64,000 nt of DNA, from contig CAVTBU010000005.1 of assembly GCA_963733035.1 (NCBI GenBank), forward strand, positions 160,001-224,000. The letters run 5' to 3'. Each line of letters begins with the position of its first letter. Position 1 is the first letter of the stretch. Made by a program: the position numbers and the translations under genes. Source of the stretch: Pirellulales bacterium (GTDB lineage Bacteria > Planctomycetota > Planctomycetia > Pirellulales > PALSA-1355). The notes below the pieces were generated by a model. That model made no database searches, was not told the origin of the DNA, and saw only the letters and a list, made by a program, of their open reading frames with translations. Positions 5,500-15,085 of this stretch are shown here, piece after piece.

Positions 5500-5964
5500 G
5501 TTCGGGGCCAAGCACCAGCTTCGGCGGATAGGGTTGATTGGCCGAATTGGTGTCATTCGGTTCGCGATTGACTTCAGGAAGCACCGGCTCGCGGACCGAA
5601 GCGGCGGCCGGGGGCTGGCGACGTAGCCGAGCCTGATTCACGCCGGTAAACCCGCGCCATCTCCCGAATCGGTGCCGACGAAATCCGTCGGCCGGCGATT
5701 GCCACGCAAGAAACGCTCTGTGCCCGTCAGCGAGCCGCTGTTTTGGATCATCCCTTCCGCCGGGTTGCTGACCGCGCCGGGCGTCTGTTGCCGCGACAAG
5801 AACCCCCCAATCTCGCGTTGTCCAAACATCTGTGCATTGGCACGCGCGGAAGTCACGAGCAGCGCGGTCGCCAACGCCAATGCGAAACGGACACGTGGCA
5901 CGAGAATCTTCTCCGAGGCGGGCTGGGCGGGCGGTTTCTTTGAGATCGACCTGCCACCCAGCAT
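5207..5964 (-). CDS. Exported BON-domain protein; apparent 1-nt frameshift near 5648
   Basis: ORF 5638..6090 gives the signal peptide (FALALATALLVTSARANA/Q); ORF 5207..5641 gives the BON motif (AVLRGVVASERDRELAEALVLFEPGISDVQNDLQV); adding one T in GGTTTACC joins them. Confidence 0.7.
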
Positions 5965-6253
5965 ATCATAAACCACGTCCGCGGGGTGGGGTGCATGCAG
6001 CCTATTCCTCGCTGTTTTCGCAAGATAGCCACTCCAGGTGAATTGCTTGATTTCCCCAGGGCAACGCCCGCCGGAATCGCAATTCGACAATCTGACGGCC
6101 CCAGCAATCCCGAGCTAGGAATTCTAGGCAAATTGCGGCACCCATAACGGTTCAACAGACGTTTATGCAAACGTCGACCGTAATGGTCGAATCTATCAGT
6201 GGGTGTGAACCGATTGTAACGTCGCCCTTTGCGTTGCCGACCTGGGACGAAGC

Positions 6254-7360
6254 ATGCCACGTGTTGTCTTTGTTGTTGCATTGCTAGCGGTCTCGTGCCG
6301 CTTGGCGCTGGCCCAAGAGGTGGTCAACGACGGCTACCCCGTCTCGAGCCTGAGAATTCCGGGCACGGATCCGTTTGGGCTGATGTGGCCGTGCATCGAG
6401 CCGTTTGTGTTTCAATCGCCGCTCAAGACCACCTATTTCACGGCCGACATGGTCGCGTTTCGCCGCGACTGGCAAGCCTCGCAAACTTTTGCCACGCTCG
6501 ATACATCCACCAATGCCGTGTTGGGAACGCACGACCTGCCGTTTGTCTTCCAGCCAGGTATGCGCCTGCTGGCGGGACGACGATTCAATGATTGGTTCGC
6601 GCTGGAAGCCAGCTACATCGGCCTGCTGGACTGGAATGAGTCGCGGTCGGTACGTGATTCGACCAGCAACGCCCTCGGCACAACCGGAAACTTGTTTTCG
6701 CCATTCTCGAATTTTGGCGATCCACCGATCGTGGGCTTCGACTACAACTATTTTGCCTCGATCCATGTCGTTTCGACGTTCAACAACGCGGAACTCAACC
6801 TGCGGCAGCGACTGGCGACTCCACCCTCCTGCTTACAAGCCACGGCCATTTGGGGCCTGCGCTACATAAATATCCAGGACCGGTTCTCATACCGCACTCA
6901 GTCGTTCGAACCGGCGCCAGGGGGCACCAATACGGCCATCGACGTGCAAGCCCGCAACAACCTGTTCGGCGTTCAAGTCGGCGGAACGGTGGAATTTCAA
7001 GTTGAGCGTCGCTGTTGGCTCATGTTTGAGGCAAAGGGAATGCTGATGGCAAACTCAGCAAGCCAGCAGACCTCGTACACCGCCGGCACCTTGGCGGGTG
7101 CCGGGTCGACCGTGACGGGTAGCCGCTCTCAGGGACGCGCCATGTTGGGCGCCGATTTGGCTGCGACGCTGGAATGGAAAATTCTGCCGGGGCTGATTGC
7201 ACGCTTCGGATACCAGGGTATCTTTCTCGACGGCCTGGCGTTGGGCTCCAACAATTTCCTCCGCAACCTGGCCGACATGGCCATCAATCCGAATCAACTC
7301 TCCGAGAACGGCCACCTCGCTTATCAAGGGCCTTTCGCAGGCGTCACGTTGACTTGGTAG
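6254..7360 (+). CDS. Outer-membrane beta-barrel protein (planctomycete BBP7-like)
   Basis: Signal peptide, amphipathic beta-strands, 'NNLFGVQVG', 'ARFGYQGIFLDGLALG', C-terminal aromatic residue (GVTLTW). Confidence 0.75.
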   Translation: MPRVVFVVALLAVSCRLALAQEVVNDGYPVSSLRIPGTDPFGLMWPCIEPFVFQSPLKTTYFTADMVAFRRDWQASQTFATLDTSTNAVLGTHDLPFVFQPGMRLLAGRRFNDWFALEASYIGLLDWNESRSVRDSTSNALGTTGNLFSPFSNFGDPPIVGFDYNYFASIHVVSTFNNAELNLRQRLATPPSCLQATAIWGLRYINIQDRFSYRTQSFEPAPGGTNTAIDVQARNNLFGVQVGGTVEFQVERRCWLMFEAKGMLMANSASQQTSYTAGTLAGAGSTVTGSRSQGRAMLGADLAATLEWKILPGLIARFGYQGIFLDGLALGSNNFLRNLADMAINPNQLSENGHLAYQGPFAGVTLTW

Positions 7361-7800
7361 TGAGATTCGCCTTGCCTGCGGCACTTCCCCGCGGGTTGCA
7401 CGCGCATCCCGGATCGCATCCGTGCCTTCAACCCCTGCTGCCGCAACGGCAGTGGCCTGTCGCGCTGCGGTCTCGTCGACTCCACATGGACACGTTCGGC
7501 CTGTCGGTAGCTGGGCCGTGCAGTTCGCATGAGCACGCCGACGCCCGTGAAAGTTGATACTCCTCAGCGTGCGTCGATCGAGTTCGTCAACGAACATGAC
7601 GGCGATTTCCAAGATTGCATCGCCGCTCTACGATTGGTCGGGTTGAGCCGCTTCAAAAAATGTCTTTGGTGTAGGGGCGGCTCGTTTTTTGCCCCCCCAT
7701 CTTGATTGCTGATACCAACCCAATTAGTCTATGACAGGAATTGAGCGACCTCGCGGCAGGGGCAAGCCGCCGACCATCGACCTCGCTCGAGGCAAGCCGC

Positions 7801-9622
7801 GTGAGAGAAAACGTTCTCGGCATCTCCGCTTATTATCACGACGCGGCCGCAGCCTTGGTGTGTGGTGGTGAAATTATCGCTGCTGCGCAGGAAGAGCGAT
7901 TTTCTCGCAAGAAACATGACCCGCGCTTCCCCAAACGGGCAATCAACTATTGCCTAGGGGAAGCGTTTGTCGACCCCTCCGAGCTAGCCGCCGTCGTCTT
8001 CTACGATAACCCCTTGCTCACTTTTGACCGTATCGCCAAGAACGCGGTCAGTGTCGCCCCGAGTGGTCGCGATCAATTCGTCGAGGCCTGTCGCGCCTTC
8101 TTGGGCACGAAAGTCCGCATTCTGGACGAGCTCGAGGAAATCCTCGGCCAACGTCCAAATTTGCTCGTTACACATCACCACATGGCCCACGCCGCCAGCT
8201 GCTTCTACCCGTCCCCGTTCGAGGAGGCCGCGATCCTCACGGTCGACGGCGTGGGCGAATGGGCCACCTGTTCACTCGGTTACGGCAAGGGGAACCAAAT
8301 CAGCCTCTTGCACGAAATCCATTACCCCCATTCGCTGGGCCTGCTTTACAGCGCGTTTACCTACCACTGCGGGTTCAAGGTGAACTCAGGCGAATACAAG
8401 TTGATGGGACTTGCGCCATACGGAGAACCGAGATACGCCGATCTGATTCGCGAAAAGCTCATCGATGTGCGCGACGACGGTTCGTTTCGCCTCGACACGA
8501 GCTATTTCGGCTACCTCGAAAAACAACGGATGACCAACGACCGCTTTGACGAACTTTTCGGCCCGCCGCGCAAACCGGAAACGCCAATCACACGGTATCA
8601 GATGGACCTGGCCGCGTCGGTCCAACAGGTCACCGAAGAGGTGATGCTCAAGCTCGTGGCTCACGTTACTGAACTAACCGGCACGAAGAACGTCGTGATG
8701 GCGGGCGGCGTGGCACTCAATTGCGTCGCCAACGGACGCGTGTGGCGCGAGTCTGGGCTGGATGGTCTATTCATCCAGCCAGCGGCGGGCGATGCTGGTG
8801 GTGCCCTTGGGGCGGCACTCCTGGTCGCGCATCAACTATTGGGTGCTCCTCGCACCGTGAACGGCGGCGATACCCTCCGTGGAAGTTACCTCGGTCCAGC
8901 GTTCGGTTCACACGAAGTTGAGGCGTTTCTCGATCGCCAGGCCGCACCACATACTCGCGTGCGTGATGCGGAAAAGCGTGCCGGTGTCATCGCCGACGCG
9001 CTGGCCGATGGAAAGGTCGTCGGGCTCTTTAGCGGACGTATGGAATTCGGCCCGCGAGCGCTGCGCCCGTTCCATCCTTGGTGATCCGCGCCGCGCTGAC
9101 ACGCAAACGACGATGAACCTCAAGATCAAGTATCGCGAAAGCTTTCGTCCGTTTGCCCCGGCCGTGCTCGCCGACCAGGCGGACGATTTCTTCGAACTCG
9201 ACGGAGACAGCCCCTACATGCTGCTCGTCGCGCAAGTTAAGCGAGAGCGTCAGCTCCCCATGGACAGGTCGGTTCACGACAGCGACGACATGCTGGAAAT
9301 CGTCAGCCAGCCGAGGAGTGATGTGCCGGCCATCACGCACGTCGACTACAGCGCCCGTGTTCAGACCGTCAAGGAGGATGATTCGCCTGAGTTGCACCGA
9401 GTTCTCCGCGCGTTTCACGACAAGACAGGCTGCCCGATTGTCGTCAACACGTCGTTCAACGTGCGCGGCGAGCCCATCGTTTGTTCGCCGCAAGACGCCT
9501 ATCGCTGCTTCATGCGTACGGATATGGATCTGCTTGTGCTCGAAGACTGTCTCATCTGGAAAAACGAACAACTCGCGACCAAGAGCGACGAGAAGTGGAG
9601 GACGACCATTGAACTCGACTGA
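7801..9622 (+). CDS. O-carbamoyltransferase (NodU/CmcH/TobZ family); apparent frameshift near 9063
   Basis: GISAYYHDAAAAL, QEERFSRKKHD, HHMAHAAS, DGVGE, GEYKLMGLAPYG, GGVALNC, EFGPRAL|(G)ARSILGDPR, KYRESFRPFAP, NTSFNVRGEPIV; split across ORFs 7741..9084 and 8879..9622. Confidence 0.92.
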
Positions 9623-9974
9623 CAAAGACCCTCGCAAACTCGCGGGCGCGCTTTTCGACGAAGTGATCGCCCCGCTCGCTGCGGCTCGCAAGGCCGCAAG
9701 CAATCCGCCGTATTTTGCCGCGGCGGCGGACATGACCCTTGCGAGCTATTACCAAGAGCCGATCGTCAGCGAATTGCAGGCGGCCGACTATCAATTCCCG
9801 GGCGGCGGTTCGGCCGACGGATTCATTGACGCCTTGGCGGCCCACTGGCTGGCCCAGGGCGAAACCGAACTGGCGGCCATGGCGCCGCGGTTGAAAGAGA
9901 TTGCCGCGGAATTGAAACGGGAAGCATCCCAAGGCGATGGCACGATCAGCGCACTTTGCTACACGATGTTCTAA
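9609..9974 (+). CDS. Small soluble protein (about 121 aa) ending ...SALCYTMF-COOH
   Basis: TTG at 9609 overlaps the carbamoyltransferase stop; it is the 3' part of ORF 9153..9974; helical, protein-like composition. Confidence 0.75.
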   Translation: MNSTDKDPRKLAGALFDEVIAPLAAARKAASNPPYFAAAADMTLASYYQEPIVSELQAADYQFPGGGSADGFIDALAAHWLAQGETELAAMAPRLKEIAAELKREASQGDGTISALCYTMF

Positions 9975-10032
9975 GCCAAGATGGCCGCCGAGGTCGGTCG
10001 TTGGCCTCCCAGGTCCGAAAGCAGGACGAACC

Positions 10033-10590
10033 ATGAGTACCACCGATTCGCTGCATGAACAGATTGAACAGGACATTTGGAATTGGATCAACGAGTTCGT
10101 CACCGCATCGAACGAGTTTTACAAATTCAAATTCGCGCCCTGCCCCTATGCCCGGACGGCCGTCTTGCAAAACAAAGTCGACGTGAAAATCTGGGAATCC
10201 GGAGATATTCGCCAATTCATTCGCGAGGGTGCGGTCGACATGCGCGAGTCGCCGCAGTTGACCACGCGAGTCATGACATTCCCGCCGAAAACGCGTTTCC
10301 TGTGGGGAATCAATGACTACGTCGAACAACTCAACGTCGAGTTGGTCCCGACCAATGTATTCCTCAATACAGGCGTGGCCAGGACCACGCAAAGCCGCTA
10401 TTCCGGGTCGACCGACCCGTACTTCATCGTGATTGCCAATAGCCTGGCGGCCGTGTTGGCGGGAGCCGAATCGCTCGCGAAATCCGACTATTACCAGGAT
10501 TGGCCCGCCGATCATTACGCCCACGTGGTCGAGCGGCGAGCACGCATGGCTAAGCATTTCGGAATCAAGCCCGAACTTCCGCCACAGTAG
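10033..10590 (+). CDS. Hypothetical protein with W...PCPYA motif (DUF1415-like N-terminus)
   Basis: ATG at 10033 after AGGA; 'IWNWINEFV...FAPCPYARTAV' resembles the DUF1415 'W...V...CPFA' signature. Confidence 0.7.
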   Translation: MSTTDSLHEQIEQDIWNWINEFVTASNEFYKFKFAPCPYARTAVLQNKVDVKIWESGDIRQFIREGAVDMRESPQLTTRVMTFPPKTRFLWGINDYVEQLNVELVPTNVFLNTGVARTTQSRYSGSTDPYFIVIANSLAAVLAGAESLAKSDYYQDWPADHYAHVVERRARMAKHFGIKPELPPQ

Positions 10591-10629
10591 CGCGTTTCCA
10601 CTCGCATTGACTCTCAGAGGCGTACCTCC

Positions 10630-11619
10630 ATGTGGAATTCGCTCACGAAATACCACCCGCGGATTGGCTACACGTTCATGCCGAGCGTCCGTTCGCGCAT
10701 ACCCTGGGAAACCGGCGGCTACCTGGTAAGCACTAACAGTGCGGGCTTCCGCTCCGATTTCGAGTTCATCAAGGAGCGCACGGCGGGAAAGTTTCGGGCG
10801 ATCGTCTTTGGCGATTCGCAAACGGCCGGCGACGGTCTGAGCAACCGCCAGCGATACAGCGACGTGCTTGCCTCGCTCGTTCCCGACCTGGAAGTCTATA
10901 ACTATGGCCTTCCCGGCTCCGGCACCGACCAGCAATACCTCACCTATCTTGATTGCGCGGACGTCGAACACGATCTGGTCATCATTGGCTTGCACGTCGA
11001 AAACATCGGCCCAGTCTCCCATCGCTTTCGCCCCTACAAGGACGGCGAAGGCAACGAAGTGATTTATGCCAAGCCGTACTACTCGCTTGAGAATGGCGAC
11101 CTCGTGTTGCACCACATCCCCGTGCCCAAGGCGCCGATGACGCGGGCCACGATTTCCACAGACGATGCCCTGCATGTCGATTGGGGAGTACCGTTCGCCG
11201 GATTGCGAACCGTTGTGAAGAAGCTCGGCATGCGCGATCTGATGCAAAAGATCACGAAGTTTCAGCCCGTGCCGGACTATGATTCGCCCACCAACGGCAA
11301 TTGGCTGTTGCTCCGAAAAATCCTGGAGACATGGATCCGCGGGAGCAAGACACCAGTGTTGTTGCTGCTGATACCGATGTGGCCGTTTGTGGAACAATCC
11401 AGCGATCCGACAAACTACCAGTCGCGGTTTCGCGAACTTGCCGAGGAGACGGGCTGTCGTTTGCACGATCCGCTCCCAGACCTGTGGCAATACACCGACA
11501 GCCAGCGTCGTGGTTTCCGCTTCAAAGTCGATTCACATTTGACGCCCGACGGTCATAAGGCAATCGCCGTCTCACTGGCGCCCGCCGTCGAGCGGATCTT
11601 GGCCGAACAGCGTGGTTAG
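10630..11619 (+). CDS. SGNH/GDSL hydrolase family protein with no signal peptide
   Basis: Block I FGDSQTAG, block II NYGLPGSG, block III ..VEN, block V DSH..PDGH. Confidence 0.88.
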   Translation: MWNSLTKYHPRIGYTFMPSVRSRIPWETGGYLVSTNSAGFRSDFEFIKERTAGKFRAIVFGDSQTAGDGLSNRQRYSDVLASLVPDLEVYNYGLPGSGTDQQYLTYLDCADVEHDLVIIGLHVENIGPVSHRFRPYKDGEGNEVIYAKPYYSLENGDLVLHHIPVPKAPMTRATISTDDALHVDWGVPFAGLRTVVKKLGMRDLMQKITKFQPVPDYDSPTNGNWLLLRKILETWIRGSKTPVLLLLIPMWPFVEQSSDPTNYQSRFRELAEETGCRLHDPLPDLWQYTDSQRRGFRFKVDSHLTPDGHKAIAVSLAPAVERILAEQRG

Positions 11620-11690
11620 TCGGCCCGGGCTTGGCCCTTACACGGGGCCGTCGATGCGTCAGTCGACTTCGGTTCCTCTGGGAATCACCC

Positions 11691-12227
11691 TCAGTTGCTG
11701 TCGCGATGTGTCGGCAACGCCGCGGTGCGACTCACTGTCCCCGATTGCCTTGACGGTGCCACATGCTTCGTGGGGAAAAGCTTCGGAGATTTGAGCGCTT
11801 TTTCGCCCTTGATCACGACAACGCGCTCGACGGACATTTTGGCGTCGTAGTGCACCTCCAATTGAACTTCGGTGCCGTCGACAAGCGTCTCGGCGGGCAC
11901 GCCCACCACTTCCCACAGGCCAAATGTAGCGACGTCGGCCGCGCCGTGCGCCAATGCTCGCGCGGCTTTCGTTGTCTTGGCATATCCTTGCTTGAACGCG
12001 AACACGTCCACCTGCCGACCGTCTTGCTTCTCGCTCCACACGGGCGGTCCCAATTCGGCAATCACGTGCGTGCGCGGGATGCCGGGATCGAGCACTCCCA
12101 GATCGCGCTTGTTCGGTTGTCGCGAGGCAATCACCGCGGCGCAACCGGGAAGAACTGCTGTCAGTGCGCCGAACGCACAAGCAACGACCGCGCCGACTCG
12201 ACTGATTCGTTTTATTCGGTACGACAC
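11691..12227 (-). CDS. Hypothetical lipoprotein
   Basis: GGAGG then GTG at 12227; basic N-terminus, hydrophobic core, lipobox VLPG-C; 'ADVATFGLWEVVGVPAE' core. Confidence 0.7.
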   Translation of the reverse strand: MSYRIKRISRVGAVVACAFGALTAVLPGCAAVIASRQPNKRDLGVLDPGIPRTHVIAELGPPVWSEKQDGRQVDVFAFKQGYAKTTKAARALAHGAADVATFGLWEVVGVPAETLVDGTEVQLEVHYDAKMSVERVVVIKGEKALKSPKLFPTKHVAPSRQSGTVSRTAALPTHRDSN

Positions 12228-12383
12228 ACAGCCTCCGAAATCGACAACCATCCCCCCTGTCGGCCAAAGGAGGAGGATCATAGGCACCTGTTGCGTTCGT
12301 GTGAATCTCATTTAGCGAGATCGCCTCCTTCGCTCTTGTCAGGCCTGAAACAGGCCCCCTAAACACGAAGGGACGCCGAAATC

Positions 12384-12434
12384 TTGACGTTCTCCCCCAA
12401 AAGCACCATACTGTTGCGGTTAGTGAGCACTAAC
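12384..12434 (+). promoter_or_regulatory. Sigma70-type promoter with a palindromic TetR-type operator
   Basis: TTGACG (12384-12389), 17 nt, CATACT (12407-12412); perfect inverted repeat GTTAGTG-AG-CACTAAC at 12419-12434. Confidence 0.7.
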
Positions 12435-12452
12435 TTACCTCAACAGGCCGAC

Positions 12453-13205
12453 ATGAGTACCGCTCGTAACCACCGTCCGCGTCGGATGACAGCCAAAGAG
12501 CGCAGGCAATCCATCCTGCTGGCTGCCGCACCGGTCATTGCCGAATCCGGCCTACACGGGGCATCCGTAAAAAACATTGCCGAGGCGGCCGGCGTCTCCG
12601 AGGCTCTGCTCTATAAACATTTCCCCAGCAAACAGGCTCTCTACGACGAGACGCTCGCGACGGCCCGCGAATTTTCGCGGTTTACCATCGCCCGATTTGC
12701 CACGCTGACTCCCAGCACCGAATCGTTCGTCCTGCTGACTTATGCCACGATTGATTTCATCCTGTTCGGATTCCCCGGACGCGAAGCGCATGAACAGGGA
12801 GCCGCGCGGCTGGTGTTGCAAAGCCTGCTCGGCGACGGTACCTACGCTCGCACCATTTTCGCCGACACGGCCGCGAGTTGGATGGACTACGTGATGGCCA
12901 GTTACACGGCGGCGGTGGCCGCCGGCGACATTGTGAAAATGGAAATTGAGCCGGCTCAACGTTTCCGATTCGTGCAACAGCTTGGCATGGCGCTGCGAAT
13001 CAGCCACCTGCCTGAGCCACCGGCCATCGACCACCACGGCAGCAAACGAGAACTCGTCAATAACGCAACCTTGTTCTCGTTGCGCGGTGTCGGAGTTACG
13101 GATCGAGCAATAGCCGAATACTTCCAGCCGGCCAGCCTTGCCAAGATGCTGTCGGACCTTTTCCCCGTTGATAGCGCGGGCGGCATCGCCCGCCCCTGTT
13201 CGTAA
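12453..13205 (+). CDS. TetR/AcrR family transcriptional regulator
   Basis: ERRQSILLAA...GLHGASVKNIAEAAGVSEALLYKHFPSKQALY helix-turn-helix. Confidence 0.92.
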   Translation: MSTARNHRPRRMTAKERRQSILLAAAPVIAESGLHGASVKNIAEAAGVSEALLYKHFPSKQALYDETLATAREFSRFTIARFATLTPSTESFVLLTYATIDFILFGFPGREAHEQGAARLVLQSLLGDGTYARTIFADTAASWMDYVMASYTAAVAAGDIVKMEIEPAQRFRFVQQLGMALRISHLPEPPAIDHHGSKRELVNNATLFSLRGVGVTDRAIAEYFQPASLAKMLSDLFPVDSAGGIARPCS

Positions 13206-13246: not shown

Positions 13247-15085
13247 ATGCGAGCCCGTCCAAGCAGAAGCTTCAGCGTCCTATTAGCGAGCCTGACATTG
13301 GCAGTGTTCACGCCTTGCGCCGTCGGTGCCCCCGTCGGTCCGGGAACCTTGGTCGATGATTTTGAAATGTCGGACCTCTATGGCCGCCAGCACAAAATAT
13401 CGGACTATGGCGATCGGCACGCTGTCGTACTGGCGTTTGTGGGAACCGAATGTCCACTCGCACGGCTCTATGCACCGCGGCTCGCGGCGCTGTCGAAGAA
13501 ATACGAATCTGCCGGCATCAGCTTCCTGGGCATCAGTTCAAATCTGCACGACAACGTAACCGAGTTGCGGCACTTTGCTCGTGAACATGGCATCGAGTTC
13601 CCAATTCTAAAGGATGTGGGCAACGTGTTGGCCGACCGTTTGCGAGCCGAGCGGCTTCCCGTGGTGTTCTTGCTGGATCGTGATCGGGTTATCCGATATT
13701 GCGGCCGCATTGATGATCAATACGGCCTGCAATCTACGCCGGCCGGCAAGCGAGTGAGTTACCAGCTGTCCGAAGCACGACGGCAGGATCTGGCACTGGC
13801 AATCGATGAGTTGCTCGCCGGCAAACCGGTGAGCGTCGCCACCACGGAACCCAGCGGCTGCCTGATCGGCCGCAGGAAACAGGCAAACGAAGCGAGTTCC
13901 GTGACCTACTCGAAGCAGATTGTGCGGCTCTTCAACCAGCACTGTGTGTTCTGTCACCGCGAGGGACAGATTGCGCCGTTCGCCCTGGAAAGCTACGATG
14001 ACGCCGCCGGTTGGGCCGAAATGATCAACGAAGTCGTCCAGGAGCAACGCATGCCTCCCTGGCATGCCGATCCGCGATACGGTCACTTCATCAACGATGC
14101 CAGGCTCAGCAGCGACGAAAGGGAATTGATTGCCACATGGGTCGAAGCAGGCGCGCCGGAAGGCGAAAAGTCCGATCTGCCCGAGCCACCAAAGTTTGCC
14201 GAAGGCTGGATGATCCCGGAGCCGGATCAAGTGATTTACATGCCCCAGGCGTTTGACGTCCCGGCAGAAGGCACTGTCGAGTACAAGATGTTTATCGTCG
14301 ACCCTGGGTGGACCGAAGATAAGTGGGTGGCCGCGATGGAGCCGCGCCCGGGCAACCCCGCGGTTGTGCATCACATTGTCATGTACGTGCTACCACCGCG
14401 AGGCGTGTCGAAGTACTTTAGCGCCGATCTGCCCAAGACTCAGCTCGATTGGTTCGCTTCCTTTGCGCCGGGTTTGCGTCCGCCCGTGTTGCCGGAGGGA
14501 ACGGCTCGCTACATTCCCGCGGGCAGCAAGCTCGCGTTCCAGATGCACTACACCCCCAACGGCAGCGCCCAGTCGGACCGCAGTTACGTGGGAATCAAGT
14601 TTGCTGATCCGCGAACGGTCAAGCGCGAAGTGGCCGTGCAACATTCAGGGTCGCACGACTTCGTGATTCCGGCCCATGCGGCCAATCATCGAGTGGATTC
14701 GTCGTACACGTTCGAACATGACTCACTGCTGTGGTCGGTTTCGCCGCACATGCATCTGCGCGGCAAAGATTTCCTCTACAAGCTGATCTACCCCGATGGC
14801 AAGGAGGAAATCGTACTCAACGTGCCGCAATACGATTTCGGCTGGCAAACGACTTACATTCTCCGAGAACCCAAACGCATTCCCAAAGGGACGAAATTGC
14901 ACTGCGTCGCACACTTCGATAACTCGGAGGATAATCTAAACAACCCCGACCCGTCGATTGAGGTCCGCTATGGACCGCAGACCTGGGAAGAGATGTGCTA
15001 TGGCTGGTTTGAAATCTGCCTGGCGGATCAGGATCTCTCGGGTCAATTGGCACAAAATCGTCCGTCGGCGGCTTCGGAAAAATGA
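13247..15085 (+). CDS. Exported redoxin (AhpC/TSA) - c-type heme - copper type II monooxygenase-like fusion, paralog 1
   Basis: Signal peptide; FVGTECP redoxin; CVFCH heme motif; VVHH...QMHY; PHMH...EEM. Confidence 0.85.
   Translation: MRARPSRSFSVLLASLTLAVFTPCAVGAPVGPGTLVDDFEMSDLYGRQHKISDYGDRHAVVLAFVGTECPLARLYAPRLAALSKKYESAGISFLGISSNLHDNVTELRHFAREHGIEFPILKDVGNVLADRLRAERLPVVFLLDRDRVIRYCGRIDDQYGLQSTPAGKRVSYQLSEARRQDLALAIDELLAGKPVSVATTEPSGCLIGRRKQANEASSVTYSKQIVRLFNQHCVFCHREGQIAPFALESYDDAAGWAEMINEVVQEQRMPPWHADPRYGHFINDARLSSDERELIATWVEAGAPEGEKSDLPEPPKFAEGWMIPEPDQVIYMPQAFDVPAEGTVEYKMFIVDPGWTEDKWVAAMEPRPGNPAVVHHIVMYVLPPRGVSKYFSADLPKTQLDWFASFAPGLRPPVLPEGTARYIPAGSKLAFQMHYTPNGSAQSDRSYVGIKFADPRTVKREVAVQHSGSHDFVIPAHAANHRVDSSYTFEHDSLLWSVSPHMHLRGKDFLYKLIYPDGKEEIVLNVPQYDFGWQTTYILREPKRIPKGTKLHCVAHFDNSEDNLNNPDPSIEVRYGPQTWEEMCYGWFEICLADQDLSGQLAQNRPSAASEK

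Follow-up and report, generated by a model that had tools for sequence, protein, structure and literature searches.

A soluble protein family with an invariant tyrosine tail, encoded beside carbamoyltransferase and SGNH genes, as a candidate carbamoyl shuttle

Introduction

Shuttles that carry an acyl group on a tyrosine residue have been established recently, and only in the membrane MBOAT/AT3–SGNH systems that acylate envelope polymers. In the hexapeptide FXYXXF, described as an "acyl shuttle" (PMC12148441), the tyrosine carries D-alanine in DltX and an acetyl group in PatA, from where the group passes to the serine of the SGNH partners DltD and PatB. A carbamoyl group, too, can be loaded onto a C-terminal tail: HypF carbamoylates the C-terminal cysteine of HypE (PMC12130793). 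In the present study, we describe a four-gene cassette in a stretch of 64,000 nucleotides from a Pirellulales bacterium of the Planctomycetota (GenBank assembly GCA_963733035.1, contig CAVTBU010000005.1, positions 160,001–224,000 of the forward strand), which as a whole is referred to as the window hereafter. The four co-oriented genes, called as open reading frames (ORFs) on the + strand of the window sequence over 3.9 kb, encode a carbamoyltransferase (CT), a small protein (g2), a second protein (g3) and an SGNH enzyme (Table 1). The g2 proteins form a family with an invariant tail, the CT, g2 and SGNH genes form a recurrent triad, g2 domains occur in fusions, and the g2-linked CTs are kin to CTs linked to the membrane peptide DUF5989. 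By analogy with the envelope tyrosine shuttles, we give an even chance to the reading that the cassette is a soluble version of them, used for carbamoyl groups.

Comparison with the described shuttles

The likeness to DltX and PatA lies in g2, which ends in a hexapeptide with an invariant tyrosine at position −4 and a terminal aromatic residue. The motif sits on a separate small protein in DltX and is fused to the loading enzyme in PatA; correspondingly, g2 occurs alone or fused to a CT or an AT3 domain. DltD and PatB, in turn, are matched by an SGNH enzyme with a catalytic serine that is encoded beside g2. The differences concern the membrane and the group. DltX is a transmembrane (TM) micro-peptide, whereas g2 is a soluble, folded protein of 120 aa; the neighbouring loading enzyme is an ATP-dependent CT and not an MBOAT protein, and the group would be carbamoyl; and, unlike DltD and PatB, the window SGNH enzyme has neither a signal peptide nor an anchor, and the window cassette has no membrane step. 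A membrane-embedded carrier that is loaded by MBOAT or AT3 was not found in the window cassette; in the g2 family, AT3 occurs only in 3 of the 11 loci of a second subfamily and in two fusion clusters.

The HypF–HypE pair resembles the proposed relay in that the carbamoyl group is placed by a member of the YrdC/Kae1-like superfamily on a residue of its partner's flexible C-terminal tail. It differs in the acceptor, which is the terminal cysteine of the HypE PRIC motif, and in the fate of the group: the thiocarbamate is dehydrated to thiocyanate and not passed to a serine enzyme. In addition, g2 is unrelated to HypE.

An earlier note on this DNA, made from the letters alone, had described four tightly packed co-oriented genes, the second of which overlaps the CT stop and ends L-C-Y-T-M-F, and this layout was confirmed from the sequence. 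It had also stated that g2 and the SGNH enzyme lack TM helices and signal peptides. The Kyte–Doolittle 19-residue maxima, 0.95 for g2 and 1.12 for the SGNH enzyme, agree with this, as they lie below the value of 1.6 at which a TM helix is called, and hydrophobic stretches are absent from both N-termini. Pfam and hydropathy revealed neither SxtJ nor any other membrane protein in the window cassette, so that the absence of an SxtJ-like membrane partner, also asserted in that note, holds; nor did the Pfam scan find MBOAT or AT3 there.

The g2 family and its C-terminal tail

A word-based search collected 56 homologs of g2 with identities of 33–100%, nearly all of them 119–124 aa long. When these homologs are aligned, Y118 and F121 reach a conservation of at least 90%, and the linker preceding them is variable. 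An exhaustive profile search extended the family to 573 cluster representatives at E ≤ 1e-3, of which 288 were found at 1e-10. The tails were counted in the best 150 of the 573 representatives: 147 carry a C-terminal xxYxx[F/Y], the other three being matches that stop before the profile end, and 117 fit [FYWLIMV]xYxxF. FIYVMF (28), FCYTLF (9) and LCYTMF (9) are the most frequent tails among them. The conservation of the terminal YxxF among homologs, on which the earlier note had made its proposal depend, is borne out by these counts.

The AlphaFold model of g2 (pLDDT 80.6) consists of a helical body, and its last 12 residues are of low confidence. No Pfam or NCBIfam family matched g2; Foldseek returned nothing below E 7 in the PDB, a wider structural search gave generic helical bundles only (Z ≤ 6.3), and the Atlas held unnamed clusters only, with scores of at most 0.88. 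The gene is rare, being present in 2 of the 201 genomes sampled from Planctomycetota and in 2 of the 301 from Pseudomonadota, and it was not found in viral contigs. That g2 is a chance ORF in GC-rich DNA was considered and rejected, given the 573-cluster family and the confident fold.

Gene order, translational coupling and fusions

In the species-representative genomes, CT, g2 and g3 were found in that order at 19 of 19 loci (L001–L019), and an SGNH gene is present in all 19; a contig end cuts it in two of them, and it lies upstream in L019. These main loci come from bins of the Planctomycetota, Caulobacteraceae/Caulobacterales, Gemmatimonadota and Acidobacteriota, together with one of the Burkholderiales and one of the Alphaproteobacteria. 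Their flanks differ from locus to locus: in a scan of 60 flank proteins, chosen from 111 non-overlapping ORFs, no flanking gene was conserved across L001–L019, and no conserved protease or exporter was found near these loci. In L019 (3197–6365), the SGNH, CT and g2 matches are each in several pieces in different frames, which suggests that the copy is decayed or that the long-read assembly is rich in errors.

A second g2 subfamily, with tails of the form P-[Y/F]-V-Y-A-M-F, was found at 11 metagenome loci (L023–L033). One feature is that g2 follows CT in all 11. Another is that the SGNH gene lies upstream of CT in L026, L031 and L032; the contig ends in or just before CT in seven loci, and in L028, where 1.8 kb of DNA lies upstream, no more than the last 50 CT residues are present and an SGNH match is absent. 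The last feature is that g3 is absent from all 11, and a convergent AT3 acyltransferase gene lies downstream in three. As for L028 (1664–2171), different DNA precedes the CT remnant, and the cassette is possibly truncated there. The order SGNH-CT-g2 without g3 was also found in G154 (tail FIYVMF) and G480 (tail FVYAMF), and CT adjoins g2 in every g2 locus that has upstream sequence. A search of the metagenome contigs with alignment A5 found nothing.

Since the triad persists without g3, the conserved core consists of CT, g2 and SGNH. The synteny of g2 with both enzymes, which the earlier note had proposed as a check, is thus seen in the 19 main loci and in L026, L031, L032, G154 and G480, and that with CT also in the 11 loci of the second subfamily. 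CT and g2 are, moreover, tightly coupled: in the window, the two genes share 14 nt at the CT stop, and the overlap is exactly 14 nt in 16 of the 20 loci in which it could be placed, in both subfamilies.

Fusions of the g2 domain were found as well. In the cluster P0239, a CT C-terminal domain (67% identical to that of the window) is followed by a linker of about 33 residues and a g2 domain ending FVYTMF; being a single cluster, it may be an indel artefact. In P0177 and P0270, an AT3 domain (PF01757, 1.3e-20) precedes a g2 domain with the tail YIYAMF or YVYVMF (hhalign probability 99). The earlier note had regarded the relay as cytoplasmic. The window cassette is without a membrane protein, and for the family as a whole this reading fails, because some relatives are paired with or fused to the membrane protein AT3.

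Kinship with DUF5989-linked carbamoyltransferases

The CT C-terminal domains were compared in a maximum-likelihood tree built from 43 rows and 187 columns. All 27 CTs linked to g2 fall into one group (support 98/96), and its neighbours are three CTs linked to DUF5989 (89/87); owing to midpoint rooting, the tree gives no direction. The DUF5989 family (PF19451, SxtK) occurs in 65 of 121 Planctomycetota genomes. At the best 30 of its loci in this phylum, a CT gene lies within 1.5 kb in 19 and SxtJ (PF19588) in 12, and at several loci the peptide follows CT directly, as g2 does. The tail [FW][IL]YxxF ends 27 of 29 Planctomycetota peptides, and the hexapeptides FIYTMF and FIYAMF are common to DUF5989 peptides and the g2 family. 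The DUF5989 tail that the earlier note had given (roughly PFIYTLF) was therefore correct, some tails even being identical to those of g2 relatives; the SGNH gene that it placed beside DUF5989 was found at only 1 of the 30 loci with two SGNH queries. The two systems thus share their tail types, the position directly after CT and neighbouring places in the CT tree. They differ in that DUF5989 peptides are of about 50 aa with one TM helix, whereas g2 has none, in that SxtJ is absent from the window cassette, and in that g2 is rare whereas DUF5989 is widespread.

The literature was also searched. In the library searched, closed supplements aside, no study on DUF5989 was found, and none of the matches listed links SxtK or SxtJ with "acyl shuttle" or "FXYXXF"; the co-mentions of DltX and carbamoyltransferase, among the matches listed, are unrelated genome or transcriptome studies.

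Two further loci in the same genome lie outside the window. In one (L022; G000:C5:1340000-1354000), a second CT is followed by an SxtJ-family membrane protein (PF19588, 1.4e-6), after which no DUF5989 ORF was seen. Its neighbours are GT2, DegT-type aminotransferase, sugar transferase and UDP-sugar dehydrogenase-like genes, and the locus therefore represents the canonical membrane form of the system within a set of polysaccharide genes. In the other (L037; G000:C5:432000-446000), a DUF5989 gene (7103-7312, + strand; PF19451, 4.8e-19) ends A-P-F-M-Y-P-L, without the terminal Phe. Divergent from it stands a gene for a 460-aa GDSL and TPR protein (5607-6989, − strand) with an N-terminal hydrophobic anchor, and no CT is nearby, so that the DUF5989 peptide is paired there with an SGNH protein alone. 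The window SGNH enzyme is not detectably close to this membrane-anchored protein (probability 17.7).

The proposed relay and its acceptor

The window CT gave, besides the Pfam domains of Table 1, weak NCBIfam matches to NodU, HypF and TsaD, and its C-terminal part is 60–77% identical to the CTs of the 19 related loci. The SGNH enzyme has the block I G-D-S serine, the block III asparagine and the block V histidine (PF13472, 2.3e-11). In the SGNH alignment A7 (19 sequences), S63, H303 and D62 are invariant and N125 is nearly so. The solved SGNH structures gave weak matches only, the best being 7ddy (E 0.0047).

The following relay can be proposed. The CT would make carbamoyl-AMP out of ATP and carbamoyl phosphate, as in its family, and would load the carbamoyl group onto the hydroxyl of Tyr118 in the flexible tail of g2, which would be made in step with CT through the overlapping start and stop. 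The tail would then swing into the SGNH enzyme and carbamoylate Ser63, and the SGNH enzyme would pass the group to an acceptor hydroxyl, the likeliest being that of a cytoplasmic sugar or polysaccharide precursor. In this scheme, g3 would be an accessory of one subfamily, probably a heme oxidase with a cysteine ligand, whose task would be either to prepare the acceptor or to work on the Cys-Tyr tail.

As to the acceptor, the window flanks (a BBP7 porin and a TetR regulator) are uninformative. In G480 (L165, G480:C1:25000-39000), the triad lies amid a polysaccharide locus, with genes for CpsB/CapC, a 1068-aa Wzy_C protein, a polysaccharide deacetylase, a fused ADH/GFO-IDH-MocA oxidoreductase and a heparinase II/III-like protein, and 4 of the 19 main loci have GT2 or polysaccharide deacetylase genes beside them. 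This gene context suggests a glycan acceptor.

Several points weigh against the relay. O-aryl carbamates are poorer donors than aryl esters. The flanks of most main loci are unrelated to glycans, and the block V aspartate of the SGNH enzyme varies in part of the family. Neither g2 nor three distant members of its family matched PF19451 up to E 10, and the link between g2 and DUF5989 is founded on a six-residue tail and on gene position. Furthermore, the relay leaves g3 unaccounted for, the residue before the tail tyrosine hints at a chemistry of the tail itself, the phage neighbourhoods of g3 relatives look like peptide tailoring, and the window CT reads as broken; these last points are taken up with the alternatives below.

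g3 and the tailoring alternative

The search for g3 homologs gave 225, and 30 columns are invariant among 51 of the sequences, including P36-C37-P38-x-A40. No Pfam or NCBIfam family matched g3 at threshold. Below threshold, Pfam matches to DUF6875 were found for 41 of the 51 members (best 4e-4) and to DUF1415 for 24 (best 9e-4), the window g3 itself staying below both Pfam thresholds (12.2 bits against a cut-off of 24.5). When g3 was aligned by hhalign with 10 DUF1415 proteins, in which C-P-F-A is invariant, the probability was 90 (E 1.7e-6) over 64 columns including the cysteine; the V-C-P-F of one DUF6875 member was also aligned to the g3 cysteine, but with a probability of 1.9. The DUF6875 and DUF1415 models gave no match at E 1 in the same genome, and the g3 profile gave 0 matches at E 10 among the PDB sequences.

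The g3 model (pLDDT 88.6) has seven helices and four strands. Its closest structure is AglA (9ub3; Z 6.4, root-mean-square deviation 4.0, 145 residues aligned), and nitric-oxide-synthase oxygenase domains match it at Z 4.1–4.2; Foldseek gave nothing below 1e-3, with weak methyltransferase-like rows. According to a preprint (bioRxiv 10.64898/2025.12.11.692455), DUF6875 has been renamed cytochrome P422: its members hold a cysteine-ligated heme in an RxGxVCP motif, have a fold of seven helices and four strands, hydroxylate tryptophan and form C-S bonds. The likeness of g3 to DUF1415 (PF07209) and DUF6875 (PF21780) consists in the invariant Cys-Pro-[Phe/Tyr] after the first helix, and that to P422 in the alpha/beta fold of the model with the same numbers of helices and strands. 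In contrast, RxGxVCP is not fully kept in g3, and the P422 members act on free tryptophan beside genes of tryptophan metabolism, whereas g3 stands beside a carbamoyltransferase. Judged by sequence comparison, g3 is a distant relative of DUF1415 and DUF6875, and heme binding via Cys37 is a reasonable hypothesis from sequence and model. It is accessory to one subfamily and lies outside the conserved core.

Among viral contigs, g3-like genes are common (192 relatives found, 80 kept); tblastn did not find g3 in the phage record collection. In 4 of the 80 viral loci (L080, L081, L082 and L097, on contigs of 108–345 kb), CT follows the g3-like gene. A gene of 33 aa with the tail R-D-P-F-I-Y-K lies between the two and overlaps both, the three genes overlapping end to end (5001-7113 in L080). 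All four loci have two radical SAM/SPASM genes upstream, and in L080 an AMP-binding ligase gene and a Trp-halogenase-like gene lie downstream. The phage protein is like g2 in being small and soluble, in ending P-F-I-Y-x and in overlapping the CT gene; it differs in being of 33–34 aa, basic, located before CT and ending in Y-K, not YxxF.

An alternative is that g2 carries no group in transit. It would instead serve as a scaffold or precursor and have its C-terminal Cys-Tyr-x-x-Phe tailored: g3 would oxidise it, CT would carbamoylate it and the SGNH enzyme would trim or release it. The outcome would be a cofactor, a small molecule derived from the peptide, or the protein itself in modified form. 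The oxidative chemistry of the P422 enzymes would fit such a role of g3, the phage loci combine a g3-like gene, a tyrosine-tailed gene and CT with tailoring-type genes, and the C-terminal residue of HypE is likewise carbamoylated and then converted (PMC12130793). Moreover, the residue directly before the tail tyrosine is a cysteine at all 19 g3-bearing loci and at none of the 11 others. This association, however, counts as one evolutionary event, because only two clades are involved, and the core triad survives without g3. The conserved, folded body of 110 residues is also unlike a leader peptide, no conserved protease or exporter is nearby, and the identical tail ends the DUF5989 membrane peptides, common in Planctomycetota, and matches the proven shuttle motif. 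We therefore consider the tailoring of g2 unlikely.

g2 as a non-covalent subunit

It is rather improbable, in our judgement, that g2 is a non-covalent subunit of CT, such as an adaptor, a chaperone or a regulator, with a tail that docks as a pseudo-substrate or latch and carries nothing. The strict translational coupling and the one CT–g2 fusion would be satisfied by such a subunit, since they indicate partnership and not covalent loading. However, it would leave unexplained why the tyrosine at −4 and the terminal aromatic residue are invariant, exactly as in the proven acyl-tyrosine shuttles, why an SGNH enzyme constantly accompanies the CT–g2 pair, and why g2 domains are fused to AT3 acyltransferases.

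Integrity of the carbamoyltransferase gene

Both CT domains match strongly in the window (Table 1), but the frame breaks at 9062/9063: frame 1 ends at 9084, frame 2 is open from 8879, and the break lies at about 9062/9063. In 19 of 19 related genome loci, the two halves share one frame. The site was compared in contigs of two runs, X2 and X3, which come from two different studies and cover about 250 bases each at about 99% identity (X1 and X4 miss the site). The X2 contig (record 9, 8967-9210) and the X3 contig (record 17, 9003-9256) each have "TG" inserted behind 9062, and in each 1 other letter and 2 gap letters differ. The two letters restore one frame, and close relatives therefore carry an intact CT. 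The two-letter loss in the window would thus go back to an error of assembly or to a change that happened very recently. A small indel made in assembly is plausible, since the window genome is a 10-contig assembly including a 2.99-Mb contig; when the source reads were sought among public runs, the best run had only 0.31 of the sampled window words. That the cassette is a decaying remnant in this genome, with CT a pseudogene and the other genes out of use, agrees with the two overlapping open frames and is nevertheless very unlikely, given the read-through in the near-identical contigs, the plausible indel, and g2, g3 and SGNH genes that are intact with every family-invariant residue.

Gene layout and neighbouring genes

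The coordinates are collected in Table 1. The gaps are 58 nt between g2 and g3 and 39 nt between g3 and SGNH. The start of g3 was set at 10033 and not at 9937, because its homologs begin at 10033. A promoter and terminator scan of 7300-12000 gave results no better than shuffles.

Table 1 Positions of the cassette features in the window
Feature	Position	Strand	Remarks
CT N-terminal part, NodU/CmcH type	7741..9062	+	Frame 1 to frameshift; start TTG 7741 or GTG 7801; Pfam Carbam_trans_N 2.4e-87
Frameshift site in CT	9062..9063	+	Window two letters short relative to near-identical contigs
CT C-terminal (YrdC-like) part	9063..9622	+	Frame 2; stop 9620-9622; Pfam Carbam_trans_C 1.7e-58
Ribosome-binding site GGAGGA for g2	9597..9602	+	6 nt before g2 start; read from sequence
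g2, 121-aa soluble helical protein with flexible C-terminal tail	9609..9974	+	TTG start; 56 homologs; 573 clusters
g2 terminal hexapeptide L-C-Y-T-M-F, proposed carrier site	9954..9971	+	Tyr118 at 9960-9962; followed by stop
g3, 185-aa alpha/beta protein	10033..10590	+	Invariant Cys37 (10141-10143) in P-C-P-[Y/F]-A; window reads FAPCPYA
SGNH/GDSL enzyme, no signal peptide	10630..11619	+	Ser63 (10816-10818) in F-G-D-S; invariant His303; Lipase_GDSL_2 2.3e-11

Directly upstream of the cassette lies a gene for a BBP7-family beta-barrel porin (PF07585, 1.1e-10; 6254-7360, + strand). Convergent with the cassette end is a gene for a 206-aa protein without a family match (11691-12311, − strand), which has a hydrophobic stretch at about residues 40–60. 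Beyond it stand a gene for a TetR-family regulator (TetR_N, 5e-16; 12384-13205, + strand), a TetR gene also being found before the cassette in L016, and one for a 612-aa secreted-looking protein (13247-15085, + strand) whose N-terminal part is thioredoxin-like and which contains a motif of the heme-c type, C-V-F-C-H.

Implications

What is new here is the shuttle tail of DltX and PatA on a soluble carrier family, with another enzyme for loading and, probably, another group. A protein family of 573 clusters without annotation is defined, and a DUF1415/P422-like protein is linked to carbamoyl transfer.

A wider reading can be put forward tentatively, and it falls somewhat short of an even chance: carbamoyl-O-tyrosine may serve generally as a protein-bound carrier state that has not been described so far. 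In one branch of the NodU/CmcH-type CTs, the group would go to the tail tyrosine of a dedicated partner instead of the final substrate, and this partner could be a phage microprotein, a membrane peptide (DUF5989/SxtK) or a soluble protein of 120 aa (the g2 family); delivery would fall to an SGNH enzyme or an AT3 channel, and in the subfamily of the window the heme-thiolate protein g3 would work on the Cys-Tyr tail or on the acceptor. DUF5989/SxtK and SxtJ beside CTs would thereby receive a testable role. All parts of the window cassette are soluble, and its reconstitution in vitro should therefore be much easier than that of the membrane systems.

If true, the wider reading would explain the long-puzzling small genes beside the sxtI-type CTs and would extend the principle of DltX and PatA from the envelope to the cytoplasm. 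A soluble carrier tied to an ATP-dependent CT and a cytoplasmic SGNH enzyme would show the shuttle principle to be wider in its chemistry, which would include the carbamoyl group, in its place, which would include the cytoplasm, and in the enzymes by which the carrier is loaded.

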